64,000 bases of DNA from assembly GCF_011045215.1 (NCBI RefSeq), contig NZ_CP049201.1. One strand, given 5' to 3'. Origin of the DNA: Escherichia coli. GTDB lineage: Bacteria; Pseudomonadota; Gammaproteobacteria; Enterobacterales; Enterobacteriaceae. Position numbers and translations under genes: made by a program. Below the pieces are notes generated by a model. It was not told the DNA's origin. It ran no database searches and saw only the letters and a program-made list of their open reading frames with translations. Every line of letters begins with the position of its first letter. Position 1 is the first letter of the stretch. Shown here in pieces: positions 12,291 through 43,782 of the stretch.

Positions 12291-12353
12291 ATGCACTCCA
12301 TGCCATTAAAAAAGAAACAAAAGGGAAATGCATCTTTCCCTTTTGTATATTCG

Positions 12354-13214
12354 TTATTCTCGCGAAATACCATCCAACGTAGACAACACTTCCTCAGAAA
12401 GATGCAATTTTTCAGCAGCCATATTCTCCCGTAAATGCGCAACAGAAGACGTCCCTGGGATCAGCAAAATATTCGGTGAACGTTGTAACAGCCACGCCAG
12501 CGCCACCTGCATGGGTGTTGCACCCAGGCTCGCTGCAACATCGGAAAGCGTGGCGGATTGCAGCGGTGTAAAGCCCCCGAGCGGGAAGAACGGCACGTAG
12601 GCAATGCCATCGTGGGCCAAAGCATCAATCATTGCATCATCAGCACGGTGCGCGATGTTGTATTCGTTTTGCACACAGACAATTTCGGCAATCTTGCGCG
12701 CCTCTGCAACCTGCGTCGGTGTGACGTTGCTTAGGCCAATATGTTTTACCAGGCCTTGTTGTTGCATCTCTGCCAGCACGGTCAGGCTGGCTTCAATCGA
12801 TCCTTCCGCCGGGCCATGACCATCCCCCATCATCACGCGCAGGTTAACCACATCCAGTACGTCCAGGCCGAGATTACGTAGATTATCGTGTACCGCTTTT
12901 TGCAGCTCTGCCGGAGAAAATGCGGGCAACCAGGATGCGTCCTCTCCACGCCGCGCACCAATTTTAGTGACAATTGTCAGGTCGTCAGAGTAAGGATAAA
13001 GCGCTTCGCGGATAATCTGATTGGTGACGTGCGGACCATAAAAGTCGCTGGTATCAATGTGATTGACGCCCAATGCCAGCGCCTCACGCAGCACGGTTAT
13101 AGCGACGTGACGATCTCTTGGGGGGCCAAAAACCCCAGGACCTGCCAGTTGCATCGCGCCATAACCAAGACGGTTAACGGATTTTGTACCGAGAGTAAAT
13201 GTGTTGCTGCTCAT
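12354..13214 (-). CDS. ydbC: Aldo-keto reductase YdbC
   Basis: 286 aa; AKR-family features (GxxxxD, NHIDTSDFYG); synteny. Confidence 0.9.
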   Translation of the reverse strand: MSSNTFTLGTKSVNRLGYGAMQLAGPGVFGPPRDRHVAITVLREALALGVNHIDTSDFYGPHVTNQIIREALYPYSDDLTIVTKIGARRGEDASWLPAFSPAELQKAVHDNLRNLGLDVLDVVNLRVMMGDGHGPAEGSIEASLTVLAEMQQQGLVKHIGLSNVTPTQVAEARKIAEIVCVQNEYNIAHRADDAMIDALAHDGIAYVPFFPLGGFTPLQSATLSDVAASLGATPMQVALAWLLQRSPNILLIPGTSSVAHLRENMAAEKLHLSEEVLSTLDGISRE

Positions 13215-13368
13215 CGCACCCTGCCCTGTAATAAAACGGATTAAGAAAAATCAGTATAGAAATGAATAGAGATAAATAATGCGAGGGCGTAAACAAGATT
13301 ACTGGATGAGTTGCTCTATTGTCCTGAAAGACACCAAAACAAAACGCGTCAAGTACCGCATCCGGCAA

Positions 13369-13402
13369 TAAAAAACCGCAACCTGTATCAGCGTTGCGGT
13401 TT
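13369..13402 (-). terminator. Intrinsic terminator after paaY (end of paa cluster)
   Basis: A-run, CCGCAAC...GTTGCGG stem, T-run; symmetric so potentially bidirectional. Confidence 0.6.
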
Positions 13403-13444
13403 AGGTATCACCTGCTAAAAATTAGAACATTCAGCATCAGGACG

Positions 13445-14035
13445 TTACTGTTTCGGTCGCAGATCCTCATCAAATACCAGGCGCTTTCTGCCAGGTTCAA
13501 CTTCCCGCAATGGCTCGACTTGATGCAACGTCTGCTTACAGCGTGTCACCAGCACCTGATACTCATGCGTGCCCTGCTTTTTCCATGCCAGTTCTTGCTC
13601 ACTAAGTTCACGAATCGCTTTGGCCGGGCTGCCGACAATCAGGTAATTAGCAGGCATTTCTGCTTTGGCTTTCACAAATGCGGATGCGCCAACAATGCTG
13701 TTCTCGCCAATCACCGCACCGTCCATCACTACCGCGTTCATTCCCACTAATGCATTGCGGCGGATAATGCAGCCGTGAAGAATAGCGCTATGACCAATAT
13801 GTCCATCTTCTTCAACGACTGTATCCTGCTCGGGAAAACCGTGCATAACGCAATTATCCTGAATGTTCGCGCCATCTTTCACCACGATACGACCAAAATC
13901 GCCACGCAGGCTGGCATTGGGTCCAACGTAAACACCCTTGCCGAGAATAACATCGCCGATCAATACCGATGTCGGATGAACAAAACTCTCTTCTGGTACA
14001 ACCGGAGTCAGACCGTCTATCTGGTAAATTGGCAT
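13445..14035 (-). CDS. paaY: Hexapeptide-repeat (left-handed beta-helix) protein PaaY
   Basis: 196 aa; gamma-carbonic-anhydrase-like hexapeptide repeats; last gene of paa cluster. Confidence 0.92.
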
Positions 14036-14967
14036 AACGCCTCCTGTTCAATGTTCAAACCGCCAAAACGTTGAAAATACAGGCTACCCGGCGCAGGCAG
14101 TTCACCGACCGAGGTTTCACCTTTTTCACTAACGAACGCTAAAGCGGCAGGCGCTACGCGCTGATAAATGTTGATACACAGCTGACGCGCCGTATGCCCT
14201 GCCCAGTGTGCCGGAAGCAACTCCTCCGGCAACAATGGGTCTTTAAGGACGACACGGCGATAAAAATGGATCAGTAAAAGCTGAATATGAAATGCACGCT
14301 CCGGGGTTAACTCGTCTGCCGCCTCTTTTAACAGCGGCACCAGCGGGCGGAATGACTGAATAAAGGTTTCGTACATGGCATTTTGTTCAGTTAAATGCCA
14401 GCACTCTTCTACTCTGGCACGCAGTGCTGCACGAGAAAGCGCCAGTGGTATTTGCGCTTCAAAACAAATTACGTTATCCGCCACACCCGCTTCATGCAAA
14501 AGTGTCTGTACATCGGCCAGTTTTTGCGACGGCGATGCCATCAGGCTGGGTGCCAGTGCGCCAAAACCTTGCCAAATCAACTGCTTTTTGACATCAGCCA
14601 GCGTCGTTTTATCTAAACCTTCCGAGAGCAACAGGAGCCATTTACCATCCCATGCAGGTTGCTCTGCGCGATAGATTTTACTTTCTGCCCGTCGCGTCAG
14701 GCGCAAGCCTTTATCACTGAGGCTATAGAAACTGCGTCGCCCGATGCGGGAAACATCCAGCCAGCCTTCTTTATTAAGACGAAACAAAGCGGTGCGGACG
14801 AAACGCTCACCAAATCCCAGCCCTTCCAGCAAAGCCGCCAGACTACCCAGCCAGATTTCACCACCACGATGGGAAAGCGAATCACCATACAGAGAGGAGA
14901 TCAGTGATGTGCCACTGACAGGAACAGCGTTGACAGCATGTTGGATAAAAGTATCAAGTTTACTCAT
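14017..14967 (-). CDS. paaX: Phenylacetyl-CoA-responsive transcriptional repressor PaaX
   Basis: 316 aa; matches recalled PaaX; position upstream of paaY. Confidence 0.93.
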
Positions 14968-15029
14968 TCGATTCAGTCTGTTGTTATTGTTGTGATTTAT
15001 GAATCATAGCACAGGTCGTATCGACTTCT

Positions 15030-15057
15030 GGCCCTGGTGGTTTACCTCACCAGGGCC
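15030..15057. repeat. Perfect 10-bp inverted repeat in paaK-paaX intergenic region
   Basis: GGCCCTGGTG-gtttacct-CACCAGGGCC; no T-run; possible attenuator/REP-like structure. Confidence 0.5.
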
Positions 15058-15067
15058 ATACGACACG

Positions 15068-16381
15068 TCAGGCACCAACAATATTGCGCAGATCAAACAC
15101 CCGACACGCCTTGCCTTCTGAACGCGGGATACTGCCACAGTTAACGATCATCACATCGGTAGAAATCCCCACCATCGACTTAATCCGATGGCGCAGCTGG
15201 TGGCATACCTGGCAACGCTGCTCATGCGTCAATGTCAGGCTGCTTTCTTTCAGCTCTACTTTCACAGAAAGTGAATCAAGATGCCCTCGGCGGTTCACCT
15301 CCAGTTGGTAATGCGGCGATAAATGTTCGAATTTGACAATCTCTTCTTCCAGTTGTGACGGGAAGACATTCACACCGCGAATGATCAACATGTCATCGCT
15401 GCGTCCGCTGATGCGATCCATGCGGCGCATGGTTCGTGCCGTTCCTGGCAACAGTCGGGTTAAATCACGCGTGCGGTAACGAATGACCGGCAATGCTTCT
15501 TTGGTCAGCGTGGTGAATAACAGTTCGCCATGTTCGCCATCGGCAAGCGGTGTGCCGTCATGAGGATTAACAATTTCAGGATAGAAATGATCTTCCCAAA
15601 TAGTTGGGCCGTCGGTCGTTTCCAGACACTCCATCGCCACCCCCGGCCCCATCACTTCTGACAGGCCATAAATATCCAGTGCGGTGATCCCCAGACGCCG
15701 TTCAATCTCTTTACGCATGGCCTGTGTCCACGGCTCAGCACCAAACACTCCAACCCGCAGCGAGCAACCGCTGGCATCACCGCCCAACTGCCGCTCCAGC
15801 TCTTCAATCAGGTTAAGGCAATAAGATGGCGTAACCATGATCATATCTGGTTGAAAATCGCGGATCAGTTGCGCTTGTTTTTCTGTCTGCCCGCCAGACA
15901 TCGGGATCACCGTAGCGCCCAGACGTTCGGCACCATAGTGCGCGCCCAGCCCACCAGTAAACAGGCCGTAACCATAGGCAACATGAATTTTGTCTTTGGG
16001 CGTGCCACCTGCCGCACGCAAAGAACGCGCTACAATATTGGCCCAGTTATCAATATCGTTTTGCGTATAGCCGACAACTGTCGGTTTACCTGTGGTTCCC
16101 GAAGAAGCATGAATGCGCACCACTTGTTCCATCGGCACGGCAAAGGTGTCGAAAGGATAGTTGTCGCGCAGATCCTGTTTGGTGGTACAGGGAAATTTAC
16201 GCAGGTCTGAAAGTTCCCTGAAATCATCAGGATGTACGCCTGCTGCGTCGAATTTGCGCCGATACATCGGCACATTTTCATACGCGTGTTTGAGCGTCCA
16301 TTTCAGACGCTGTGTTTGCAACGCCTGTAACTCATCAACAGACGCGGTTTCAATCGGGTCAAGCTTTGTATTGGTTATCAT
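15068..16381 (-). CDS. paaK: Phenylacetate-CoA ligase PaaK
   Basis: Adenylate-forming enzyme; start placed at MITNTKLDPIE (437 aa) instead of the overlapping ORF-track start. Confidence 0.92.
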   Translation of the reverse strand: MITNTKLDPIETASVDELQALQTQRLKWTLKHAYENVPMYRRKFDAAGVHPDDFRELSDLRKFPCTTKQDLRDNYPFDTFAVPMEQVVRIHASSGTTGKPTVVGYTQNDIDNWANIVARSLRAAGGTPKDKIHVAYGYGLFTGGLGAHYGAERLGATVIPMSGGQTEKQAQLIRDFQPDMIMVTPSYCLNLIEELERQLGGDASGCSLRVGVFGAEPWTQAMRKEIERRLGITALDIYGLSEVMGPGVAMECLETTDGPTIWEDHFYPEIVNPHDGTPLADGEHGELLFTTLTKEALPVIRYRTRDLTRLLPGTARTMRRMDRISGRSDDMLIIRGVNVFPSQLEEEIVKFEHLSPHYQLEVNRRGHLDSLSVKVELKESSLTLTHEQRCQVCHQLRHRIKSMVGISTDVMIVNCGSIPRSEGKACRVFDLRNIVGA

Positions 16382-16407
16382 TGTAGGGTACTCGCAGGTT
16401 GATATGC

Positions 16408-17613
16408 TCAAACACGCTCCAGAATCATGGCGATGCCCTGACCGACACCGATGCACATGGTGCATAATGCGTAACGACCGTTACGCCGATGCAACTCATG
16501 GCTGGCAGCCAGTGCCAGGCGGGCACCACTCATTCCCAACGGATGGCCTAAGGCGATAGCGCCTCCGTTGGGGTTAACATGTGGGGCATCATCAGGCAGC
16601 CCCAATTCGCGTAGTACACCCAACGCCTGGGCCGCGAACGCTTCGTTCAGTTCAATCACGTCCATATCGTGAATACTCAGCCCCGCGCGTTCCAGCACCC
16701 GGCGAGTTGCAGGCACCGGACCAAGCCCCATCAGACGCGGTTCCACCCCGGCGGTTGCCATGGCTACGATACGCGCTCGCGGCGTCAGTCCATGCGCTGC
16801 TGCCATCTGTTCACTGGCAATAATCAACGCAGCGGCTCCGTCATTCACCCCGGAGGCATTGCCTGCGGTAATCACCCCATTGGCACGAAACGGTGCTTTC
16901 AGCCCACGTAACTGTTCCAGCGTCGTTTCCGGGCGCAGATGCTCATCATGTTGTATTTCTATTACAACACCTTTCTTGTTTTTCAACACAACCGGAACAA
17001 TCTCCTCAGCCAGAATGCCTGAGGATTGCGCTTTTGCCGTACGTTGCTGACTGCGTAGCGCAAAACTATCTTGATCTTCTCGCGAGATTTTTAACAGTTC
17101 AGCTACATTCTCTGCCGTTTCCGGCATGCTGTCAGTTCCAAATTGTTGAGCCATGAGCGGGTTCACAAATCGCCAGCCAATAGTGGTATCAAACATCTCA
17201 GCCTGACGAGAAAATGCACTGGTTGCCTTGCCCATAACAAACGGTGCCCGTGACATTGACTCCACGCCACCGGCGATCAGCAAATCGCCATCGCCCGCTT
17301 TAATCGCCCGTGCGGCGAACCCCAGTGCGTCCAGCCCGGAACCACACAAGCGGTTAATGGTTGTGCCGGAAACACTCTGCGGCAGCCCCGCCAGTAAAGT
17401 CGCCATCCGGGCTACGTTACGGTTATCTTCTCCCGCCTGATTAGCACAGCCGAGGATCACATCATCGATACATTCCGCATCGAGACGCGGGTTTCGCACC
17501 AGCAGTTCCCGCAAAGGGATAGCAGCCAGATCATCAGCCCGAACACCTGATAATGCCCCGCCGTAGCGACCAATTGGCGTACGAATTCCGTCACAAATAA
17601 AGGCTTCACGCAT
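16408..17613 (-). CDS. paaJ: 3-oxoadipyl-CoA / 3-oxo-5,6-dehydrosuberyl-CoA thiolase PaaJ
   Basis: 401 aa; thiolase signatures (catalytic Cys region CGSGLDA, NEAFAAQ, C-terminal [11 protein letters not shown]). Confidence 0.93.
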
Positions 17614-18035
17614 CAGGCTTCTCCTGTAATGGTGCCGCCGATGCGGTGAGATTTACCGCGAAACAGCGCAACCGTTTTTTGTTGTTGGTTAACAATTTCG
17701 ATGTCGTAAACACCGGTTTGCTTGCCCTGATGACGTACCTGCGCAGTAGCAGTTAAGGTGTCTCCGGCAAAGCCTGGACGCAAAAAATCAATCGTGCAGG
17801 CAGAAGCGACGGCTGCCAGCCCCTGGCTATTGCAGGCGTAGGCAAAGGCAGTATCAGCCAGTGAAAATAGCTGCCCGCCGTGGCAACTTTGATGACCATT
17901 AAGCATTTGTGCAGTGACGGTCATGGTCACTACAGCAAAGCCTTCATCCATTGAGGTAATGTCGATGCCAAGCGCTTTGGCGCAGGCATCGTTCTCATAC
18001 ATTGCATGGGCATTTTGCCAGGCCTTATGACTCAT
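17613..18035 (-). CDS. paaI: Hotdog-fold acyl-CoA thioesterase PaaI
   Basis: 140 aa from MSHKAWQNAH; ORF-track upstream extension overlaps paaH. Confidence 0.9.
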   Translation of the reverse strand: MSHKAWQNAHAMYENDACAKALGIDITSMDEGFAVVTMTVTAQMLNGHQSCHGGQLFSLADTAFAYACNSQGLAAVASACTIDFLRPGFAGDTLTATAQVRHQGKQTGVYDIEIVNQQQKTVALFRGKSHRIGGTITGEA

Positions 18036-19452
18036 AACCGCTCTCCAGAAGCGCCCGTTGGCGCAGCAATGAACATGGGCGATAGCGTTCTTCGCCATAG
18101 TGATGCTGTAGATTTTCCAGGAGCCTTAATATTCGCTGCCAGCCAAGTTGCGCTCCCCAGGCAAGTGGGCCATATGGATAATTCACCCCAAGACGCATGG
18201 CGGTATCGATATCCTGTTCAGAGGCCACGCCTTTTTGCAGCGCATCGAGGGCTTCATTGATGATCATTGCTACCGTTCGCCAAATCAGCATTCCTGGGTA
18301 ATCTGCAATTTGCAGCACTGTTTTGCCCTGCTGTTGCAGGTAATAAATGGCCTTGCGGGTCGCTGAGTCCGGGTTCACCGCTGCCGCAGCAATGGTCACC
18401 ACCTTGCCCGCCATTTTGTCGACCACTACCACCGGGCGTGCCAGTCGTATTGCCAGCGCCTGTGCCGTCTCGCCTTGTGTCTCAATCAATAAAACATCGT
18501 CAATTTCCGTGACACCGTCACTTTTCTTTTCTACTTTCATTGGGCTAAAACTGTCGCTTACCGCTTCCAGGCCAACAACTGCCTCACGTTCCGCGCGCCA
18601 GTCGTACACGCCCAGCCCACTTTTCTTGCCCAACCGTCCACCAATCACCAGTTCCTGTTGCACCAGCGAAGGTAAAAAACGACGCTCCTGCCAGAAAGCG
18701 TTAAACACCGAACAGGTGACAGCAAAATTGACGTCCTGACCAATCAGATCGGTTAATTCCAGCGGCCCCATCGGGAAACCAGCGCCATCGCGAAGCGCAG
18801 CGTCAATCACTTCTGGTGCAGCAACCTGCTCTTCCAGTGCCCGCCAGGCCTCGGAATAATAAGGACGCGCAACACGGTTAACGATAAATCCGGGGGTCGA
18901 ATGACAGCGCACTGGCTGCTTACCCCAACTCAATGTCAGTTCACACAACTGCTCGACAACTTCCGCTGCCGTTGCCAGCCCACTGACCACCTCCACCAAC
19001 TTCATCACCGGTGCCGGGTTAAAAAAATGCAGCCCCGCAACACGTTCAGGATTTTTTACCTCCGCAGCAATCGCGGTTATAGAGATTGACGAAGTGTTAG
19101 TGGTCAATAGCGTTTGTGGCGGGCAAACTTCCGCCAGCTGTGCAAAGAGCGCTTTTTTGACTTCCAGACGTTCAGACGCCGCTTCAATGACCAGGTCCGC
19201 AGCTGCCAGCGCGTGAATATCGGTCACTGGGATCAGGCGTTTCAATGTGCGTTCACAGGTTTCAGCAGTCAGTTTTCCCCGCGTCACGCGTGAATTTAGC
19301 CGCGCGTGTATCCCGTCGATTGCGCGGGTCAGCGCTTCAGCAGAAATGTCATACAGTAAAACCTGATGTCCATGACTGGCGGCAATTTCAGCAATGCCTG
19401 CCCCCATGGTGCCGCTCCCAATCACTGCCACAGTTTGCACATTTATCATCAT
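18025..19452 (-). CDS. paaH: 3-hydroxyadipyl-CoA dehydrogenase PaaH
   Basis: NAD-binding VAVIGSGTMGAGIA; start at MMINVQ (475 aa); ORF-track start overlaps paaG. Confidence 0.92.
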   Translation of the reverse strand: MMINVQTVAVIGSGTMGAGIAEIAASHGHQVLLYDISAEALTRAIDGIHARLNSRVTRGKLTAETCERTLKRLIPVTDIHALAAADLVIEAASERLEVKKALFAQLAEVCPPQTLLTTNTSSISITAIAAEVKNPERVAGLHFFNPAPVMKLVEVVSGLATAAEVVEQLCELTLSWGKQPVRCHSTPGFIVNRVARPYYSEAWRALEEQVAAPEVIDAALRDGAGFPMGPLELTDLIGQDVNFAVTCSVFNAFWQERRFLPSLVQQELVIGGRLGKKSGLGVYDWRAEREAVVGLEAVSDSFSPMKVEKKSDGVTEIDDVLLIETQGETAQALAIRLARPVVVVDKMAGKVVTIAAAAVNPDSATRKAIYYLQQQGKTVLQIADYPGMLIWRTVAMIINEALDALQKGVASEQDIDTAMRLGVNYPYGPLAWGAQLGWQRILRLLENLQHHYGEERYRPCSLLRQRALLESGYES

Positions 19453-19453
19453 G

Positions 19454-20242
19454 CTATTTCCCCGTGAACTGCGGTGAGCGTTTGGCCAGGAACGCACTGA
19501 CACCTTCACGATAATCTGCGCTCCGTCCGGCAAGTCGCTGATAGTCGCGTTCCAGATCCAGTTGCGTATCGAGCGTATTGGTTTCAGCGCTATTTATCGC
19601 TTGCTTGATAAGTCCAAGACCAAATGTCGGTTGTGTCGCCAGATGCCGCGCCAGCTGTTGCGCGGTATCTGCCAGCGTTTCATCATCAACAACCTGCCAG
19701 ATCATCCCCCATTCGTGCGCCTGTTCAGCACTCAGTTGATTCCCCAGCAGTGCCAGCCCCATGGCGCGCGCTCGCCCAGCAACGCGTGGCAGTAACCAGG
19801 TTCCACCGCAATCGGGTACTAAGCCTAACTTACTAAACGCCATGACGAATTTTGCTGAACGGGCAGCAATAACGATGTCGCATCCCAGTGCCAGTGTTGC
19901 GCCAGCCCCTGCCGCCACGCCATTGACTGCACAGATCACCGGTTTTGGCAGTTTTGCCAGGCGACGTACCAGCGGGTTATAGAAACGTTCTACTGACATA
20001 CCTAAATCCGGTGCGGGGCCAGTGGGATCAACGTTACGATCGTTAAGGTCCTGACCAGCACAAAATCCGCGCCCGGCACCTGTAATTAACAGGCAACGGA
20101 TAGTGTCGTCGCGCTCGGCCTGTTTCAGGCACTCTGCCAGTTGTGCGTGCATCTCATCATTAAAACTGTTCAGGCGTTCCGGGCGGTTGAGCGTTAGTGT
20201 CATCACGCCCTTTTCTACATGACTGAGGATGAATTCCATCAT
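19454..20242 (-). CDS. paaG: Crotonase-family 1,2-epoxyphenylacetyl-CoA isomerase PaaG
   Basis: 262 aa enoyl-CoA hydratase/isomerase fold; synteny. Confidence 0.92.
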   Translation of the reverse strand: MMEFILSHVEKGVMTLTLNRPERLNSFNDEMHAQLAECLKQAERDDTIRCLLITGAGRGFCAGQDLNDRNVDPTGPAPDLGMSVERFYNPLVRRLAKLPKPVICAVNGVAAGAGATLALGCDIVIAARSAKFVMAFSKLGLVPDCGGTWLLPRVAGRARAMGLALLGNQLSAEQAHEWGMIWQVVDDETLADTAQQLARHLATQPTFGLGLIKQAINSAETNTLDTQLDLERDYQRLAGRSADYREGVSAFLAKRSPQFTGK

Positions 20243-21009
20243 TAGCGTCCTTTAAAGTCGGGCGTGCGTTTTTGTAAGAAAGCGGAGATGCCTTCATGAC
20301 GATCTTCTGTTGCCGCCAGCAAGGTGAATAACTGTCGCTCCTGGGCAAGTCCGGCTTGCAAAGCCACTTCCTGCGACTGGCGCAGCGCTTGCTTTGCCGC
20401 TTGTAAGGCCAGCGGCGAGTGACGTGCCATTTTCGACGCCAGCTGTAAGGCGTATTCGAGGGTTAAATCGCTGGGGAAGACGTCGCTAACCAGCCCGGCC
20501 TGCTGTGCTTGCTGAGCGGTGATACTTTCTCCGCTCAGCACCATTTTGCTGGCTAACGATTTACCGACACTACGGATTAAACGTTGCGTTCCGCCTGCGC
20601 CAGGCATGATGCCGAGAGTGATTTCCGGCAACCCAAAACGCGCGTTCTCTCCGGCAACCACCACATCGCACAGCAATGCCAGTTCGCAACCCGCACCAAG
20701 CGCGTAACCGTTGACGGCTGCGATGAGTGGTTTGTTAAAGGCCTGCAATCGCGCCCATAGCTGCGGACGTGTATCGTTTAAGGTGGCCGCGAGATCTTTT
20801 TCCGCCATTTCGTTGAGATCGGCCCCGGCGGCAAAAAAGCGTGCATTACCGGTAATCACACAGACCGAAATACTGCTATCGGTAGCCGCAGCTTCCAGTT
20901 CATTTACCAGTTGCGTCAGCAGGGCATTATTTAGCGCATTACGTGCGGCGGGACGGTTAAGGGTCAGCAACAATACTCGTTGCTGACGGCTGACGATCAG
21001 TTCGCTCAT
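20242..21009 (-). CDS. paaF: Enoyl-CoA hydratase PaaF
   Basis: 255 aa crotonase fold; synteny. Confidence 0.92.
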   Translation of the reverse strand: MSELIVSRQQRVLLLTLNRPAARNALNNALLTQLVNELEAAATDSSISVCVITGNARFFAAGADLNEMAEKDLAATLNDTRPQLWARLQAFNKPLIAAVNGYALGAGCELALLCDVVVAGENARFGLPEITLGIMPGAGGTQRLIRSVGKSLASKMVLSGESITAQQAQQAGLVSDVFPSDLTLEYALQLASKMARHSPLALQAAKQALRQSQEVALQAGLAQERQLFTLLAATEDRHEGISAFLQKRTPDFKGR

Positions 21010-22076
21010 GCCATCCCCTTCGCGTCAAAGTCAACCACCACATCGCTGGTCAGCGGCAGTGCCTGGCAACTCAACACATAGCCTGCAGCCAGTTCATCCG
21101 GTTCCAGACTGTAATTGGTTTCCATCGCCACTTTGCCACGCAGCACTTTGCATTTGCAGGTCGCACAGACGCCGCCTTTGCAGGCATAGGGCAGATCAGC
21201 CCCCTGGCGCAATGCCGCATCGAGAATGCTTTCATCGTCGGCATTAAGCACGATTTCCCGATCCCGCCCATCCTGACGTACAGTCACTTTTTGTCCGTCA
21301 CTTTGCACGTTAACGCTACGTTTGACGCGCGTGCCAGGCGTATTAAACCGCTCCAGATGAATCGCTTTTTCTGGCATTCCCAGTGCTTTTAAGGCAGCTT
21401 CCGCGTCATCCATCATCGCCGCCGGACCACAAATAAACGCCTCATCATAAAGACGAAAATTAATGAGCGAGGCCCCAAGTGACTGTAATTTTTCACCATC
21501 AATACGCCCGTGAAGCAGATCGCTGTCGAGGGTTTCCTGACTGAAAATGCACAACAACTGTAAACGCTGAGGATATTTGTCTTTCAGGTCTGCCAGTGCC
21601 TGGCGAAACATCATGCTCTGGCTGGTACGGTTACCGTAGATCAGGGTGAACTGACTTTCAGGCTCGGTTTGTAAAGTGGTGGCGATAATCGCCAGCATTG
21701 GCGTAATACCTGATCCTGCTGCAATTGCCAGATAACGGCCCTGGCGTTCGGCCTGCGGCTGATAGCCGAAATGCCCCTGCGGCACCATGACTTCCAGCGT
21801 CATCCCCTGGCGGATGTGTTCGCGGGCATAGCGGGAGAAACGTCCGCCTTCAATAGCTTTCACCGCCACACTAATTTCGCCAGGCAGGTAGCTGCGGCAA
21901 ATGGAGTAACAACGGCGTAATTCTTCACCATCAAGGCTGGCTTTTAAGGTCAAATGTTGACCGGGGCGAAAGCGATACGCCTCCTGCAAAGGCTGGGGCA
22001 CCGCAAAGGTAATGGTCACCGCATCACGGGTTTCCGGCTCCACTTTTGCCACCGTTAAGGAATGAAACGTTGTCAT
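21006..22076 (-). CDS. paaE: Phenylacetyl-CoA epoxidase reductase subunit PaaE
   Basis: FNR-like domain plus C-terminal 2Fe-2S ferredoxin cysteines (CKGGVCATCKC); start at MTTFHSL (356 aa). Confidence 0.92.
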   Translation of the reverse strand: MTTFHSLTVAKVEPETRDAVTITFAVPQPLQEAYRFRPGQHLTLKASLDGEELRRCYSICRSYLPGEISVAVKAIEGGRFSRYAREHIRQGMTLEVMVPQGHFGYQPQAERQGRYLAIAAGSGITPMLAIIATTLQTEPESQFTLIYGNRTSQSMMFRQALADLKDKYPQRLQLLCIFSQETLDSDLLHGRIDGEKLQSLGASLINFRLYDEAFICGPAAMMDDAEAALKALGMPEKAIHLERFNTPGTRVKRSVNVQSDGQKVTVRQDGRDREIVLNADDESILDAALRQGADLPYACKGGVCATCKCKVLRGKVAMETNYSLEPDELAAGYVLSCQALPLTSDVVVDFDAKGMA

Positions 22077-22083
22077 GGCATCC

Positions 22084-22581
22084 TCAAATACATTTGAAAT
22101 AATCGAAAGGTTCGCGGCAACTATCGCAGCGATACAATGCTTTGCAGGCCGTGGAACCAAATTCACTGATAAGTGTGGTATGGACGCTGGCGCAACGCGG
22201 GCAACGTACTTCTGGCGGTAAATGGGCATGACAACTGTGTCCGGCGGGCGGGCTGATGCCATACTGTCGCAGACGCTCACGGGCATCGGGGGTCATCCAG
22301 TCGGTGGTCCATGCCGGGTCGAGTTGCAGCACAACCTGAACGGGGGTAAACCCGTTGGTTGTCATTGCCTCACGTATCGCGCCAATCAGATGTTCCGTTG
22401 CCGGACAACCGGAATATGTCGGCGTAAAGCCGATCACCCATCCTTCTCCCATCTGTGACACATTACTCACCATGCCTAAATCGGTAATGGTCAGCACCGG
22501 GATCTCCGGGTCCGGGATCTGGCTGAGTAGCGCCCATATCTCATGCACCTGCGGTGGTGCAATGGTGGCCAGACGTTGCAT
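22084..22581 (-). CDS. paaD: Phenylacetyl-CoA epoxidase subunit PaaD
   Basis: 165 aa from MQRLATIAPPQ; synteny. Confidence 0.9.
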   Translation of the reverse strand: MQRLATIAPPQVHEIWALLSQIPDPEIPVLTITDLGMVSNVSQMGEGWVIGFTPTYSGCPATEHLIGAIREAMTTNGFTPVQVVLQLDPAWTTDWMTPDARERLRQYGISPPAGHSCHAHLPPEVRCPRCASVHTTLISEFGSTACKALYRCDSCREPFDYFKCI

Positions 22582-22595
22582 ACCCATCTCCTCTG

Positions 22596-23342
22596 TTACC
22601 ACTGCTGACCGGGCAAGACACGCTGGAGATACTGCATTTCTGCCAGCATGGGTCCAAGGTGTTCGGTATGCAGTCCTTTTTTACCGCCAGTGCGATACGC
22701 CTGCTCTTGCGGCACGTTCAATGTGGCTTCGTTGATCCCGGCAAAAACTTCGGCCTCCCACGCTGCGCGTAAAGTGCGTGGATCAACCGCAATACCCTCT
22801 TCACTCAGTGCAATATCAATCTCGTCGGCATCGAACAGTTCGGCGGTAAAACGCCACAACTTGTTGATGGCCTGCTGCATCTTTTGCCCTGAAACGTCAG
22901 TACCATTGCCCAGTCGCTCCAGCCAGCCACGACTAAAACGCAGGTGATAACGCGCTTCTTTAATTGCTTTGGCAGAAATCGCTGCCAGTTGCGGATCACG
23001 GCTTTCCATCAGACGGGTAAAGAGCGCCACATGCCATGCATCGATGAAATACTGGCGTGCAATGGTGTCGGCAAAATTGCCGTTTGGCTGTTCAACCAAC
23101 AATAAGTTGCTGAACTGGCGCTCGTCTCGGGTGAAGGCCAGGGTATCTTCATCGCCTTCTCCCGCTAATTCAGCGGCATACGATAAGAAGTTGCGTGCCT
23201 GGCCTAATAAATCGAGGCCAATATTTGCCAGTGCGAGATCGATTTCCAGTTCCGGTGCATGACCGCACCACTCCCCCAACCGCTGGGAGAGCACCAGGCA
23301 GTTATCGCCCAGGCGCAAGGTGTAAGCCGTTAACTGATTCAT
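22596..23342 (-). CDS. paaC: Phenylacetyl-CoA epoxidase subunit PaaC
   Basis: 248 aa from MNQLTAYTLR; ferritin-like fold family; synteny. Confidence 0.9.
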   Translation of the reverse strand: MNQLTAYTLRLGDNCLVLSQRLGEWCGHAPELEIDLALANIGLDLLGQARNFLSYAAELAGEGDEDTLAFTRDERQFSNLLLVEQPNGNFADTIARQYFIDAWHVALFTRLMESRDPQLAAISAKAIKEARYHLRFSRGWLERLGNGTDVSGQKMQQAINKLWRFTAELFDADEIDIALSEEGIAVDPRTLRAAWEAEVFAGINEATLNVPQEQAYRTGGKKGLHTEHLGPMLAEMQYLQRVLPGQQW

Positions 23343-23350
23343 TTCCGACC

Positions 23351-23638
23351 TCACATGTGCTCAATGCCATCAGGGATGGAGTAAAACGTTGGATGGCGAT
23401 AGACCTTGCTTTCAGCCGGATCAAAAAATTCACCGCGTTCTTCCGGTTGCGAGGCAACAATTTCACTCGCCTTCACCACCCAAATTGAACATCCTTCACT
23501 ACGACGGGTGTAAGCATCACGGGCATTTTCCAGTGCCATCCGCTCATCGGCAGCATGTAAACTGCCAACATGGCGGTGTGATAAGCCCTGTTTGCCACGC
23601 ACGAAAACTTCGTATAACGGCCAGTAAACATTACTCAT
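23351..23638 (-). CDS. paaB: Phenylacetyl-CoA epoxidase subunit PaaB
   Basis: 95 aa; synteny. Confidence 0.92.
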   Translation of the reverse strand: MSNVYWPLYEVFVRGKQGLSHRHVGSLHAADERMALENARDAYTRRSEGCSIWVVKASEIVASQPEERGEFFDPAESKVYRHPTFYSIPDGIEHM

Positions 23639-23649
23639 TTTGAATCTCC

Positions 23650-24579
23650 TTATGCGACCTTACGGGCATGTTGTTTTTGTGCATGGGCCAGCGCAGCTTC
23701 CCGTACCCAGGTACCTTCTTCCCAGGCTTTACGTTTGGCCTCGAGCCTCTCCTGATTACAAATTCCGCGACCGTTAATTACTTCGTTAAACTCCTGCCAG
23801 TCGATCTCACCAAAGCGGTAGTGACCGCTTTCAGTATCAAAATGCAGATCCGGGTCAGGAACGGTCATACCGAGCATTTCAACCTGTGGAACGGTGTTAT
23901 CCACGAAACGCTGGCGGAGTTCGTCGTTGGTGAAACGTTTGATTTTCCAGGCGAGACTTCTGGCGCTGTTTGGCGAGTTATCATCGTTTGGCCCGAACAT
24001 CATTAAGGCTGGCCACCAGAAACGGTTAATGGCGTCTTGCAACATCTGCTTTTGAGCTTCGCTGCCCTGCGCCAGTGCCATGCAGGCTTCAAACCCCTGA
24101 CGCTGGTGAAAACTCTCTTCTTTGCAGATTTTCACCATTGCTCTGGCATACGGGCCATAAGAAGTGCGGCATAACGCCACCTGATTGACGATCGCTGCGC
24201 CATCCACCAGCCAGCCGATAACACCGATATCAGCCCAACTCAATGTCGGATAATTAAAGATGGAGGAATATTTCATCCGTCCGTCGAGCATTTTTTGGTA
24301 GATGTCTTCTCTGGCGCAGCCCAGTGTTTCGGCGGCGCTATAGAGATACAGGCCATGACCTGCTTCATCCTGCACTTTGGCTAACAGAATGGCTTTACGC
24401 CGCAAGGTTGGTGCGCGAGTGATCCAGTTACCTTCAGGCAACATACCAACAATCTCGGAGTGCGCATGCTGCCCAATCTGGCGGATCAATGTCTTTCGGT
24501 AAGCATCGGGCATCCAGTCCTGCGGCTCGATAGCCATTTCCTGGGCTATCCGTTGCTCAAAGCGTTCTTCTTGGGTCAC
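23650..24579 (-). CDS. paaA: Phenylacetyl-CoA epoxidase catalytic subunit PaaA
   Basis: 309 aa di-iron oxygenase family; matches recalled PaaA. Confidence 0.93.
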
Positions 24580-24620
24580 GTCATCACCTTTACGATTCCA
24601 GTTTTCGTGAATTAATTAAA

Positions 24621-24635
24621 AACACGAATCACGTT
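24621..24635 (-). promoter_or_regulatory. Candidate PaaX operator half-site in paaA promoter
   Basis: Minus-strand AACGTGATTCGTGTT contains TGATTCGYG core of the PaaX box as I recall it. Confidence 0.4.
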
Positions 24636-24805
24636 GTTTTATGAAAGTTACACAATGGTTAACTAAAATCACAAATTTTGTATGTTTGAACTGTGACGGA
24701 TTTCGCACCCTATTTTTATAACTCATTATTTATCAGTGTATTAATGCTTTTATTAGTTGATATACAGATCGCACAGTTAACATTTCGTTAAAATACGCCT
24801 TGCTT

Positions 24806-24820
24806 TTTATGATTCGTGAT
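24806..24820 (+). promoter_or_regulatory. Candidate PaaX operator in paaZ promoter
   Basis: TTTATGATTCGTGAT fits recalled PaaX consensus WWTRTGATTCGYGWT; about 45 nt upstream of paaZ ATG. Confidence 0.45.
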
Positions 24821-24863
24821 TTAACTATTAGTAACAGAAATGTGAAACATCTGGAGAGTAGCG

Positions 24864-26909
24864 ATGCAGCAGTTAGCCAGTTTCTTATCCGGTACCTGGC
24901 AGTCTGGCCGGGGCCGTAGCCGTTTGATTCATCACGCTATTAGCGGCGAGGCGTTATGGGAAGTGACCAGTGAAGGTCTTGATATGGCGGCTGCCCGCCT
25001 GTTTGCCATTGAAAAAGGTGCCCCAGCCCTTCGCGCTATGACCTTTATCGAACGTGCGGCGATGCTTAAAGCGGTCGCTAAACATCTGCTGAGTGAAAAA
25101 GAGCGTTTCTATGCTCTTTCTGCGCAAACAGGCGCAACGCTGGCAGACAGTTGGGTTGATATTGAAGGCGGTATTGGGACGTTATTTACTTACGCCAGCC
25201 TCGGTAGCCGGGAGCTGCCTGACGATACGCTGTGGCCGGAAGATGAATTGCTCCCCTTATCTAAAGAAGGTGGATTTGCCGCGCGCCATGTACTGACCTC
25301 AAAGTCAGGCGTGGCAGTGCATATTAACGCCTTTAACTTCCCCTGCTGGGGAATGCTGGAAAAGCTGGCACCAACGTGGCTGGGCGGAATGCCAGCCATC
25401 ATCAAACCAGCTACCGCGACGGCCCAACTGACTCAGGCGATGGTGAAATCAATTGTCGATAGTGGTCTTGTTCCCGAAGGCGCAATTAGTCTGATCTGCG
25501 GTAGTGCGGGTGATCTGTTGGATCATCTGGACAGCCAGGATGTGGTGACTTTCACGGGGTCTGCGACGACCGGACAGATGCTGCGAGTTCAGCCAAATAT
25601 CGTAGCCAAATCTATCCCCTTCACTATGGAAGCTGATTCCCTGAACTGCTGCGTACTGGGTGAAGATGTCACCCCGGATCAACCGGAGTTTGCGCTGTTT
25701 ATTCGTGAAGTTGTGCGTGAGATGACCACAAAAGCCGGGCAAAAATGTACGGCAATCCGGCGGATTATTGTGCCGCAAGTATTGGTTAATGCTGTCAGTG
25801 ACGCTCTGGTTGCGCGATTACAGAAAGTCGTGGTCGGTGATCCTGCGCAGGAAGACGTGAAAATGGGCGCACTGGTAAATGCAGAGCAGCGTGCCGATGT
25901 GCAGGAAAAAGTGAACACATTGCTGGCTGCAGGATGCGAGATTCGCCTCGGTGGTCAGGCGGATTTATCTGCTGCGGGTGCCTTCTTCCCGCCAACCTTA
26001 TTGTACTGTCCGCAGCCGGATGAAACACCGGCGGTACATGCAACAGAAGCCTTTGGCCCTGTCGCAACGCTAATGCCAGCACAAAACCAGCAACATGCTC
26101 TGCAACTGGCTTGTGCAGGCGGCGGTAGCCTTGCGGGAACGCTGGTGACGGCTGATCCGCAAATTGCGCGTCAGTTTATTGCCGACGCGGCACGTACGCA
26201 TGGGCGAATTCAGATCCTCAATGAAGAATCGGCAAAAGAATCCACCGGGCATGGCTCCCCACTGCCACAACTGGTACATGGTGGGCCTGGTCGCGCAGGA
26301 GGCGGTGAAGAATTAGGTGGTTTACGGGCGGTGAAACATTACATGCAGCGAACCGCTGTACAGGGTAGTCCGACGATGCTTGCCGCTATCAGTAAACAGT
26401 GGGTGCGTGGTGCGAAAGTCGAAGAAGATCGTATTCATCCGTTCCGCAAATATTTTGAGGAGCTGCAACCAGGCGACAGCCTGCTGACTCCCCGCCGCAC
26501 AATGACAGAGGCCGATATTGTTAACTTTGCTTGCCTCAGCGGCGATCATTTCTATGCACATATGGATAAGATTGCCGCTGCCGAATCTATTTTTGGCGAG
26601 CGAGTAGTACATGGGTATTTTGTGCTTTCTGCGGCTGCGGGTCTGTTTGTCGATGCCGGAGTTGGTCCGGTCATTGCTAACTATGGGCTGGAAAACTTGC
26701 GCTTTATCGAGCCAGTAAAACCAGGTGATACCATCCAGGTGCGTCTTACCTGTAAGCGCAAGACGCTGAAAAAACAGCGTAGCGCAGAAGAAAAACCAAC
26801 AGGTGTGGTGGAATGGGCGGTAGAGGTATTCAATCAGCATCAAACCCCGGTGGCGCTGTATTCAATTCTGACGCTGGTGGCCAGGCAGCACGGTGATTTT
26901 GTCGATTAA
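24864..26909 (+). CDS. paaZ: Bifunctional oxepin-CoA hydrolase / aldehyde dehydrogenase PaaZ
   Basis: 681 aa; N-terminal ALDH domain and C-terminal MaoC-like hydratase domain. Confidence 0.93.
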
Positions 26910-26921
26910 TCGGTGAATGAA

Positions 26922-26950
26922 GGGCAACGGCGAATAGTTGCCCTTTTATT
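26922..26950 (+). terminator. Intrinsic terminator after paaZ
   Basis: GGGCAAC...TTGCCC stem followed by TTTT. Confidence 0.6.
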
Positions 26951-27156
26951 TCACCAAATTTTGTGACGTTGTCACGTTATGCATGATGTGTATCTGTATT
27001 TTCAGGGCACCCACTGTATGAAAAGCTGGCACACCTGCCAAACAACCTGGCAGGTGCAGGCAATCCCCTTTACATCAGTACTGATAATGTGAACCTGACT
27101 AAACCGCCCACAGAGCGCGGTTGCTAACAAGAACACAACATCTGACGAGGTTAATA

Positions 27157-32634: not shown

Positions 32635-32820
32635 TCAGAAAAGATCGCTACGAGTTTCAAGCAGCTCTTCGACATCTTTGTCTGCCTTGATGATGATCTC
32701 ATGCTCAATTTTAACGTTCATATTGATAGTGATCGGTTCCTTAGGTGCAGCGACTTCAATGCGAGGCGTACAGCCAACCAGCATAAAAGATGACGTCAAC
32801 GCAGCCAGTAAAATTTTCAT
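32635..32820 (-). CDS. ynbE: Small lipoprotein YnbE
   Basis: 61 aa with lipobox LVGC. Confidence 0.85.
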   Translation of the reverse strand: MKILLAALTSSFMLVGCTPRIEVAAPKEPITINMNVKIEHEIIIKADKDVEELLETRSDLF

Positions 32821-43698: not shown

Positions 43699-43782
43699 AC
43701 CGAAAAAATTCCAAAACTTCTCAACCTCAGCACGTTCTTGAATATGGCATATGACAATTTCCTTTACGATTTATATGCTGTT

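Follow-up and report, generated by a model that had tools for sequence, protein, structure and literature searches.

Gene junctions and translation starts in the phenylacetate (paa) catabolic cluster of an Escherichia coli genome

Introduction

Within the phenylacetate catabolic (paa) cluster of Escherichia coli, several neighboring genes share nucleotides at their junctions, and several open reading frames can be extended upstream into the preceding gene. This raises the questions of whether the overlaps reflect translational coupling and which of the alternative start codons are real. We addressed both in a 64,000-nucleotide stretch of E. coli contig NZ_CP049201.1 (hereafter, the window), where the minus strand carries an intact paa cluster at positions 13445–24579. 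This is the well-known, standard set of phenylacetate catabolic genes, and its short overlaps and over-long ORFs are ordinary operon features that are already known. The explanation that very probably holds as a whole is that of a standard cluster with the usual packing, in which the annotated starts are real, coupling is likely at the tightest junctions and paaK is controlled separately.

Gene content and organization of the paa cluster

The paa cluster of E. coli K-12 and W was reportedly described by Ferrandez et al. in 1998 and 2000. Gene coordinates were carried over to the window from the RefSeq genome NZ_CP049204.1 (PGAP annotation), to which the cluster shows 99.6% identity, and from the K-12 genome NC_000913.3 (about 98% DNA identity). 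The curated K-12/PGAP coordinates transferred exactly for 13 out of 13 genes, and each of the 13 reading frames is intact at its K-12 length with a single terminal stop, which bears out the identification of the cluster made earlier in a sequence-only reading. The genes, in the order of transcription, are as follows.

paaA, 23650–24579, minus strand: 309 aa; first gene of the Pa operon; GTG start with the Shine-Dalgarno (SD) site AAGGTGAT
paaB, 23351–23638, minus strand: 95 aa; GGAG SD within the 11-nt spacer 3' of paaA
paaC, 22596–23342, minus strand: 248 aa; 8-nt spacer to paaB
paaD, 22084–22581, minus strand: 165 aa; 14-nt spacer to paaC
paaE, 21006–22076, minus strand: 356 aa; invariant 7-nt spacer to paaD (tgaGGNTGCC atg)
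paaF, 20242–21009, minus strand: 255 aa; ATGA overlap (4 nt) with paaE
paaG, 19454–20242, minus strand: 262 aa; annotated 1-nt overlap with paaF (TAATGATG)
paaH, 18025–19452, minus strand: 475 aa; 1-nt gap to paaG
paaI, 17613–18035, minus strand: 140 aa; 11-nt overlap with paaH (ATGAGTCATAA)
paaJ, 16408–17613, minus strand: 401 aa; TGATG overlap (1 nt) with paaI
paaK, 15068–16381, minus strand: 437 aa; 26-nt spacer to paaJ; without SD
paaX, 14017–14967, minus strand: 316 aa; repressor, first gene of the paaXY unit; without SD (PMC9493321)
paaY, 13445–14035, minus strand: 196 aa; strong AGGAGG SD; 19-nt overlap with paaX

Gene content and order were also matched, with paaZ divergent from paaABCDEFGHIJK, which is followed by paaXY, and all 14 paa proteins were recovered by tblastn at 97–100% identity. 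The window shares with the K-12/W cluster the 14 genes, their order, orientation and protein lengths, as well as the PaaX-box motifs at Pa and Px, and differs from it in alleles only. The ydbA/ynbG segment, which is located 3' of paaY in K-12, is missing from the window. Additional E. coli matches at 80–90% identity were considered as divergent alleles and rejected, being remnants of paaY and paaX in strains without the cluster. The GTG start of paaA is kept in 12 out of 13 other Enterobacterales loci; an ATG-ACG-TGA mini-ORF across this start was rejected as a candidate, as its ATG is not conserved.

The transcription units of the cluster, driven by Pa, Pz and Px, have been published and include paaA-K and paaXY (PMC9493321, PMC4498308). 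The paa genes on the minus strand form the same two co-directional units, paaABCDEFGHIJK transcribed from Pa and paaXY from Px. Comparison with the PaaX operator consensus TGATTC(N27)GAATCA (PMC9493321) identified operator-like motifs at both regulated promoters, and a stem-loop was found at the end of paaK.

PaaX operator-like motif at Pa, 24593–24631, minus strand: TGATTC-N27-GAATCG
PaaX operator-like motif at Px, 14969–15006, minus strand: TGATTC-N26-GAATCG; separated from the paaX ATG by 1 nt
Stem-loop, 15017–15067, minus strand: directly 3' of the paaK stop; no U-tract

The stem-loop folds with a dG of -37.2 kcal/mol (z = -4.95; none of 200 shuffles folds as well) and probably forms the 3' terminus of the Pa transcript or stabilises it. 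A scan of positions 12000–27500 against Rfam at E<=1 gave no match, and consensus promoter and terminator scans returned matches no commoner than in shuffled sequence.

Packing and conservation of gene junctions

Junction distances, measured between the final nucleotide of each stop codon and the first nucleotide of the start that comes next, are +11 for A/B, +8 for B/C, +14 for C/D, +7 for D/E, -4 for E/F (ATGA), -1 for F/G (TAATG), +1 for G/H, -11 for H/I, -1 for I/J (TGATG), +26 for J/K, +100 for K/X and -19 for X/Y. The sequence-only reading had stated that most paa genes abut or overlap by 1–10 nt and had named five overlapping pairs. All five (X/Y, I/J, F/G, E/F and H/I) do overlap, but the size range holds for E/F, F/G and I/J only and is exceeded by H/I and X/Y, and "most" was overstated: among the 12 junctions, five overlap, one abuts (the 1-nt gap), four have spacers of 7–14 nt and two are longer.

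We compared these distances with a genome-wide junction background, the figures for which were taken from PMC10666635. The range from -8 to +6 nt contains four of the 12 paa junctions (E/F, F/G, G/H and I/J) vs 24% for the whole set of co-directional gene pairs in E. coli (p = 0.31); if the limit is moved to +10 nt, B/C and D/E join them, giving six of 12 vs 27% (p = 0.08), and H/I, X/Y, A/B, C/D, J/K and K/X are left beyond it. The packing of the paa cluster is not denser than that of E. coli operons in general.

Relatives were represented by 11 other Enterobacterales genera, by 13 other Enterobacterales loci, and by a wider set including distant Proteobacteria. The D/E spacer is +7 nt in 14 out of 14 loci, E/F measures -4 or -1 nt in 14 out of 14, including all 13 other Enterobacterales loci, and H/I is -11 or -8 nt in all 13 Enterobacterales loci scored. 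Within the wider set, the H/I overlap (-8 or -11 nt) is present in 29 out of 35 loci, including those from Pseudomonas, Halomonas and Thauera, and the I/J overlap in 27 out of 29. The 1-nt F/G overlap arises because the annotation picks the first ATG (20242) of TAATGATG; the second ATG (20239) gives a 2-nt gap, which is found in 11 out of 11 other genera, where the paaG start aligns to this second ATG. The X/Y junction varies among relatives (+9, +9, -28, -28, -20, +13, +9 and +10 nt) and is not conserved as an overlap, so that in this case at least the PaaX C-terminus seems to have drifted neutrally.

Translational coupling

The overlapping paa pairs are co-directional, all being located on the minus strand. 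Published experiments in E. coli found translational coupling for gene pairs at -4 nt and its collapse once the distance exceeds about 20 nt (PMC6728339, PMC10666635). It is reasonable to regard coupling as plausible at the paa junctions between -11 and +1 nt; the same reading is inapplicable to J/K, with its 26-nt spacer, and to K/X, where the downstream gene has a separate promoter. Each downstream start, paaK excepted, has its own SD, located either within the final codons of the gene before it or in a 7–14-nt spacer. At the tightest junctions (E/F, F/G at -1 or +2 nt, G/H, H/I, I/J and X/Y), terminating ribosomes most likely promote the next initiation, possibly by termination-reinitiation or by the opening of local mRNA structure. 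The A/B, B/C, C/D and D/E junctions belong to the E. coli "+10 nt" class, in which a gene is at least as likely to initiate independently from its SD.

The SDs of paaF, paaG, paaH, paaI, paaJ and paaY fall within the 3'-terminal part of the preceding gene (dG from -5.3 to -10.3 kcal/mol) and are kept in relatives; for example, the GGAG of paaI sits within conserved L-L-E codons of paaH. The initiation regions of paaG and paaH appear closed in E. coli, at 15.3 and 11.0 kcal/mol, respectively, but open in relatives (about 8 kcal/mol). Across the cluster, predicted mRNA accessibility gave no clean split between coupled and independent genes, was irreproducible across genera except for paaK, and is no more than a weak hint that downstream translation depends on ribosomes reaching the junction. 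A literature search for published paa translational coupling, N-termini or start-site profiling found nothing relevant.

The termination-reinitiation pairs characterized by Huber et al. (2019, 2023) share several features with the paa cluster, specifically, the ATGA (E/F) and TGATG/TAATG (I/J, F/G) arrangements, an SD inside the upstream gene and, in the case of H/I (-8 nt in relatives, -11 nt here), the ATGNNTRA-type phase. However, H/I and X/Y are outside the window from -8 to +10 nt deemed predictive by these authors, and, unlike in their coupled pairs, coupling in the paa cluster is deduced from sequence and the overlapping partners other than PaaF/PaaG are not known co-subunits. Indeed, PaaF/PaaG are the only known complex partners among the overlapping pairs, and the genes for the PaaABCE subunits are separated by gaps (PMC4498308). 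Since the overlapping pairs are mostly not known to be complex partners, a stoichiometry rationale for coupling fits poorly.

The overlaps might instead have no translational function, having arisen neutrally as stop codons drifted and the genome became compact, with each gene initiating independently at its own SD, which we consider unlikely while giving it some weight. This scenario agrees with the presence of an own SD at every downstream start, with the freedom of X/Y to vary between -28 and +13 nt among genera, with a fraction of tight junctions no higher than the genome background, and with de novo initiation at bioB/F, one of the five E. coli -4 nt pairs assayed (PMC6728339). On the other hand, four of the five native pairs in the same assays were coupled (PMC6728339), the E/F, H/I and I/J overlaps persist across Enterobacterales despite saturated synonymous divergence, and those of H/I and I/J persist also in Pseudomonas, Halomonas and Thauera.

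A stronger form of coupling than the one that we favor for the tightest junctions could be proposed for paaH-paaI-paaJ. Their double overlap (-8/-11 nt followed by -1/-4/-8 nt, with an internal GGAG each) is conserved in Enterobacterales and as far away as Pseudomonas, Halomonas and Thauera. That it imposes obligatory co-translation of the three products is very doubtful; if so, it could reflect a transient PaaH-PaaI-PaaJ assembly or keep the PaaI "safety-valve" thioesterase in constant proportion to the beta-oxidation enzymes, and such an association would escape co-purification, which gave only PaaFG and PaaABC(E) complexes.

Longest open reading frames and annotated starts

The longest ORF runs into the upstream gene for exactly the six paa genes listed in the sequence-only reading.

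paaK extension, ATG 16465, minus strand: 28 codons, 58 nt into paaJ
paaI extension, ATG 18098, minus strand: 21 codons, 74 nt into paaH
paaH extension, TTG 19533, minus strand: 27 codons, 80 nt into paaG
paaE extension, ATG 22286, minus strand: 70 codons, 203 nt into paaD
paaD extension, GTG 22602, minus strand: 7 codons, 7 nt into paaC
paaC extension, GTG 23354, minus strand: 4 codons, 4 nt into paaB, embedded in the paaB ATGTGA

The internal starts to which these genes had been moved are identical to the annotated K-12 and PGAP starts in six out of six cases, so the corrections agree with curated annotation and with the comparative evidence below. An extension frame runs off-frame through the coding sequence of its neighbor, where on average a stop occurs only about every 17 codons and an ATG, GTG or TTG at about the same interval, so that roughly half of the genes gain a spurious upstream start. 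From off-frame codon frequencies, 6.5–7.4 of the 13 paa genes are expected to be over-extended, compared with six observed, and elsewhere in the window seven out of 18 annotated genes are over-extended likewise. The rate is not above chance or background. The over-long ORFs are a by-product of tight packing. For quality control, they show that where an operon is tightly packed, a longest-ORF track places about half of the starts too far upstream.

Comparative evidence supports the annotated internal starts as the real ones. In the 11 other genera, a start codon aligns with the annotated one, without offset or occasionally shifted by up to 3 codons, preceded by an SD motif 5–9 nt upstream, the position of which is also kept; in distant Proteobacteria, the starts of most paa genes are located at most 3 codons from the E. 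coli position. The long extension frames (paaK, paaI, paaH and paaE) are closed by stops in most relatives: that of paaK within 4–15 codons in 11 out of 11 genera and that of paaH within 1–18 codons in seven out of 11, whereas the 70 codons of the paaE extension are open in only one of 11 close and one of 26 distant relatives. The short extensions of paaC and paaD are out of frame in three and four out of 11 genera, respectively (in the latter case with a spacer of 10 or 13 nt). Even between E. coli strains, the longest-ORF start shifts for paaH (-27/-32/-15) and paaI (-21/-28).

The extension starts lack an SD (dG from -1.9 to -3.3 kcal/mol vs from -5.7 to -9.1 kcal/mol for five annotated starts), the exception being paaK, the annotated start of which is likewise without SD (-2.5 kcal/mol). 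For paaD, the values are -9.1 kcal/mol for the annotated ATG, -2.4 kcal/mol for GTG 22602 and -5.2 kcal/mol for ATG 22587, two codons upstream. The structures of E. coli PaaI (PDB 1psu) and PaaH (PDB 3mog) begin at the annotated Met, and the alignment with Burkholderia PaaK structures (2y27, 2y4o) begins within about 6 residues of it. A small caveat concerns the GTG extensions of paaC and paaD, which form a GTGA-like overlap with the upstream stop and for which sequence alone is not strictly decisive.

It is highly improbable that some of the longer ORFs are real and produce N-terminally extended isoforms, the candidates being PaaC from GTG 23354, PaaD from GTG 22602 and PaaK from TTG 16411. 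All three overlap the upstream stop at -4 or -7 nt, a configuration favoring reinitiation (PMC10666635); TTG 16411, which shares a TTGA with the paaJ stop and has GGAG upstream, shows an SD dG of -6.1 vs -2.5 kcal/mol for the annotated paaK ATG; and the paaC GTG is in frame in eight out of 11 genera, as is a start-type codon upstream of paaD in seven out of 11. However, the paaC and paaD GTGs are conserved because they are located inside the last codons and stop of the upstream gene (ATGTGA and CAGTGGTAA, respectively), conservation does not extend to the residues that they add, and three to four of the 11 genera break the frame, while the paaK TTG extension is confined to E. coli, as the frame of its relatives closes within 4–15 codons, and the long paaE, paaH and paaI extensions combine the lack of an SD with closure in most relatives.

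Translation of paaK and Spot 42

The junction preceding paaK is the one loose junction within the operon (+26 nt, without SD), and the paaK initiation region is the most accessible of the cluster, costing less to unfold than any other, both in E. coli and in 10 out of 10 other genera. The targets of Spot 42 (spf) are said to have been placed in a catabolite-repression feed-forward loop by Beisel and Storz in 2011. In the paaJ-paaK spacer, we identified a candidate site for this RNA.

Predicted Spot 42 pairing site, 16383–16399, minus strand: paaJ-paaK spacer; mRNA ACCUGCGAGUACCCUAC, complementary to Spot 42 nucleotides 1–15

The predicted duplex would join mRNA positions -19 to -1 with nucleotides 1–16 of Spot 42 through a 9-nt perfect complement (GUACCCUAC, the part of the site facing Spot 42 nucleotides 1–9) extended to 14 bp; this register is our own prediction. 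Computed with the 20-nt single-stranded 5' region of Spot 42, the duplex dG is -21.1 kcal/mol at paaK vs -4.2 to -9.6 kcal/mol at the other 12 paa initiation regions; with full-length Spot 42 the energy is uninformative, the paaK value being no better than that of 77 out of 300 shuffles. The site is retained in 10 out of 11 other genera (dG from -14.5 to -22.7 kcal/mol), with several of the changes among genera fitting G-U wobble, and is lost in Rosenbergiella. Two other origins of the spacer motif were rejected: a paaJ read-through peptide, as the frame of the motif differs among genera, and an internal promoter, as its spacing is poor and the promoter scan did not pick it up.

According to secondary sources, paaK is a confirmed Spot 42 target (PMC5760752, PMC8534726, PMC6127932), two of which reportedly give its repression, dependent on Spot 42 and Hfq, as confirmed (PMC5760752, PMC8534726). 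Similar to other targets, it has a complement to the single-stranded Spot 42 5' end directly upstream of its start, but here the target closes an 11-gene operon instead of lying in a 5' leader. Given the 26-nt spacer, the lack of an SD, the unstructured initiation region and the Spot 42 site, paaK translation is probably initiated and regulated independently, the separate control probably being catabolite repression through Spot 42. The operon would then not be uniformly coupled: PaaK, the first-step enzyme encoded last, can be throttled apart from the ten upstream enzymes, as is already implied by published Spot 42 work. In a lesser variant of the obligatory co-translation considered above for paaH-paaI-paaJ, and just as doubtful, E. 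coli could use TTG 16411 to make PaaK in a coupled isoform beyond the reach of Spot 42.

Cluster content and distribution

The window carries thirteen paa genes on the minus strand in the order paaA-B-C-D-E-F-G-H-I-J-K, paaX-Y, according to both the PGAP annotation of the best-matching genome and the curated K-12 MG1655 annotation. After annotation transfer, every one of the 13 reading frames proved intact in window coordinates, with lengths exactly as in K-12; the start codon of paaA is GTG, as in K-12 and 12 of 13 other Enterobacterales loci. One further paa gene lies beyond paaA:

24864-26909: paaZ, divergent from paaA-K (PGAP best match and K-12 MG1655 annotation)

Plus-strand ORFs of 80-130 aa antisense to the paa genes are unannotated in either reference. 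In total, 4014 complete E. coli genomes match positions 13445-24579 (best match 99.6% identity over the full length), and coverage of this segment reaches at least 80% in 3104 of 5426 complete genomes. A further 900 or so retain paaY/paaX remnants only, some at 87-89% identity.

With regard to the flanks, just 230 nt (13215-13444) separate pdxI (ydbC) from paaY, a location where K-12 has ynbG and an IS-disrupted ydbA autotransporter pseudogene; ydbA is absent in the window strain. Collinearity with the best paa match, NZ_CP049204.1, ends at 43,699, beyond which (43700-64000) the two differ in sequence, the reference having sitABCD and prophage tail genes there.

Each feature described here fits a known category: the cluster is that of E. 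coli paa, its genes are packed as in ordinary operons (overlaps in the -4, -1 and -8 phases), longest-ORF tracks over-call starts, and the regulatory sites are PaaX operators and a target of Spot 42. Three points are mildly new, at a descriptive level: how deeply the H/I/J overlaps are conserved, that the F/G "overlap" is peculiar to E. coli, and where precisely the Spot 42 site lies and how well it is kept among relatives.

Gene packing and longest-ORF starts

Distances between adjacent paa genes, from the last base of the stop codon to the first base of the next start (negative values, overlaps)
A/B: +11 nt
B/C: +8 nt
C/D: +14 nt
D/E: +7 nt
E/F: -4 nt (ATGA)
F/G: -1 nt (TAATG)
G/H: +1 nt
H/I: -11 nt (ATGAGTCATAA)
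I/J: -1 nt (TGATG)
J/K: +26 nt
K/X: +100 nt
X/Y: -19 nt

The sequence-only reading held that most paa genes abut or overlap by 1-10 nt. All five pairs that it named (X/Y, I/J, F/G, E/F and H/I) do overlap, but H/I does so by 11 nt and X/Y by 19 nt, and overlaps occur at only 5 of the 12 junctions. The 1-nt F/G overlap is an annotation choice: in each of the 11 other genera a gap of 2 nt separates the two genes, and the start aligns with the second E. coli ATG at 20239. Its claim that the longest-ORF starts of six genes enter the upstream gene was borne out, these starts being 4-70 codons too long and overlapping by 4-203 nt.

Longest-ORF starts relative to the annotated start and the upstream gene
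paaK: 28 codons upstream, 58 nt into the upstream gene
paaI: 21 codons upstream, 74 nt into the upstream gene
paaH: 27 codons upstream, 80 nt into the upstream gene
paaE: 70 codons upstream, 203 nt into the upstream gene
paaD: 7 codons upstream, 7 nt into the upstream gene
paaC: 4 codons upstream, 4 nt into the upstream gene

Neither the over-extension nor the tight packing of paa is above chance. When the paa coding sequences are read off-frame, stops make up 5.5% of codons and ATG/GTG/TTG 5.9% of sense codons. Since a start-type codon is thus reached before a stop with probability 0.50 upstream of a true start, 6.5 of 13 genes are expected to be over-extended (7.4 using the actual open runs), and six were observed; among other annotated window genes with exactly transferring coordinates the count is 7 of 18. 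For E. coli co-directional pairs, 707 of 2,987 lie within -8 to +6 nt and 820 within -8 to +10 nt (PMC10666635), against which paa has 4 (p=0.31) and 6 (p=0.08) of its 12 junctions, respectively. The same packing is seen in other window operons (ynbA/B -1, ydbH/ynbE -4, ynbB/C +15, ynbC/D +13). The 4-nt ydbH/ynbE overlap is at 32817-32820; translational coupling of this native E. coli pair has been shown experimentally (Huber et al. 2019, PMC6728339).

Comparative analysis of start codons

A PaaH scan of the genome collection yielded 79 loci. The close set comprised 11 other Enterobacterales genera/species with the paaABCDEFGHIJK order, including Enterobacter, Kluyvera, Pseudocitrobacter, Pluralibacter, Cedecea and Rosenbergiella (three loci are truncated, and paaI is missing from Rosenbergiella), and the distant set some 30 further Proteobacteria with most paa genes. 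Orthologues were anchored on the window protein, and candidate starts were then located.

Moving the starts to the internal Met is supported. A start codon occurs at the aligned position or at most 3 codons away for 13 of 13 genes, with a Shine-Dalgarno (SD) motif, likewise conserved, 5-9 nt upstream. The extensions are unconserved: a stop closes the paaK frame within 4-15 codons in 11/11 genera and the paaH frame within 1-18 codons in 7/11, the paaE frame is open for at least 70 codons in only 1/11 close and 1/26 distant relatives, and the ATG at -21 of paaI was not seen outside E. coli among the relatives compared. Even among E. coli strains the longest-ORF start varies (paaH -27, -32, -15; paaI -21, -28; paaE -70, -68). 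SD energies are -1.9 to -3.3 kcal/mol at extension starts versus -5.7 to -9.1 kcal/mol at five annotated starts, paaK being the exception. When PDB sequences were searched with the extended ORFs, the E. coli entries for PaaI (1psu) and PaaH (3mog) start at the annotated Met, alignments of Burkholderia PaaK1 and PaaK2 begin within ~6 residues of the annotated PaaK Met, and PaaE homology starts at about annotated residue 9.

The ambiguity that remains is limited to the short cases, paaC and paaD. Their GTG codons (-4 and -7 codons) are conserved because they are embedded in the terminal codons of the upstream gene (ATGTGA and CAGTGGTAA). They are in frame in 8/11 and 7/11 genera, respectively, but the residues added are unconserved, and both GTGs lie upstream of the SD. 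The sequence-only reading is largely right, with minor numerical errors, and its interpretation is supported.

Translational coupling

Three transcription units are known, Pz-paaZ, Pa-paaABCDEFGHIJK and Px-paaXY (PMC9493321, PMC4498308). Native E. coli pairs are tightly coupled at -4 nt overlaps and lose coupling almost completely beyond ~20 nt (PMC6728339, PMC10666635); in a separate "+10 nt" class initiation is probably independent (PMC6728339, PMC10666635). By analogy, E/F, F/G, G/H, H/I and I/J would be candidates for coupling, A/B, B/C, C/D and D/E probably have SD-driven, independent or weakly coupled initiation, and J/K and K/X would initiate independently.

Conservation supports a putative function at some junctions. 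D/E is +7 nt and E/F -4 or -1 nt in 14/14 Enterobacterales loci; H/I is -11 or -8 nt throughout Enterobacterales and overlaps in 29/35 loci of the wider set, and I/J overlaps in 27/29. The X/Y distance ranges from -28 to +13 nt among relatives, and this overlap looks neutral. A stoichiometry rationale for coupling fits PaaF/PaaG only; the genes for the PaaABCE subunits (PMC4498308) are separated by gaps, with no overlaps. The predicted unfolding cost of initiation regions in E. coli is lowest for paaA, paaB, paaK and paaX, and that of paaF, G, I, J and D is close to the operon-internal median; across 10 other genera the pattern reproduces for paaK only.

The paaJ-paaK spacer and its predicted Spot 42 pairing site

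J/K is the sole loose junction within the 11-gene operon and has no SD (dG -2.5 kcal/mol). Its spacer motif CCTGCGAGTACCCT is identical or has one mismatch in 9/11 genera, a conservation equal to that of nearby first and second codon positions. The paaK gene is among the validated targets of the sRNA Spot 42 (PMC8534726; PMC6127932, subzone A1), and this published listing prompted a pairing test with the K-12 spf sequence:

16399..16383, minus strand: predicted pairing site, mRNA ACCUGCGAGUACCCUAC with Spot 42 nt 1-15

The predicted duplex has 9 perfect base pairs, a small internal loop and 5 more pairs, with an energy of -21.1 kcal/mol for paaK versus -4.2 to -9.6 kcal/mol for the initiation regions of the 12 other paa genes. 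Pairing is kept in 10/11 genera (-14.5 to -22.7 kcal/mol) and lost in Rosenbergiella. With paaK a published target and the pairing predicted here, Spot 42 targeting, which is known biology, accounts for the spacer motif. The motif also singles out paaK as a gene whose initiation and regulation are probably independent. In every genus checked, the initiation region of paaK is predicted to have less structure than any other in the cluster.

Ten codons before the paaK ATG is an in-frame TTG (16409-16411, minus strand) that overlaps the paaJ stop as TTGA and is preceded by GGAG at a distance of 7 nt (dG -6.1 kcal/mol). This TTG is E. coli-specific, the frame being closed in 11/11 other genera.

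PaaX boxes and the hairpin downstream of paaK

Motif matches and structure prediction yielded three further elements:

24631..24593, minus strand: PaaX operator-like motif at Pa (TGATTC-N26/27-GAATCG)
15006..14969, minus strand: PaaX operator-like motif at Px (TGATTC-N26/27-GAATCG)
15017-15067, minus strand: very stable predicted hairpin (dG -37 kcal/mol, z -4.95)

The Px motif stops 1 nt short of the paaX ATG; paaX has no SD (dG -0.9 to +0.4 kcal/mol), and its leader is A/C-rich. The hairpin begins directly after the paaK stop codon, has no U-tract, and may serve the Pa transcript as its 3' end or as a stabilising element.
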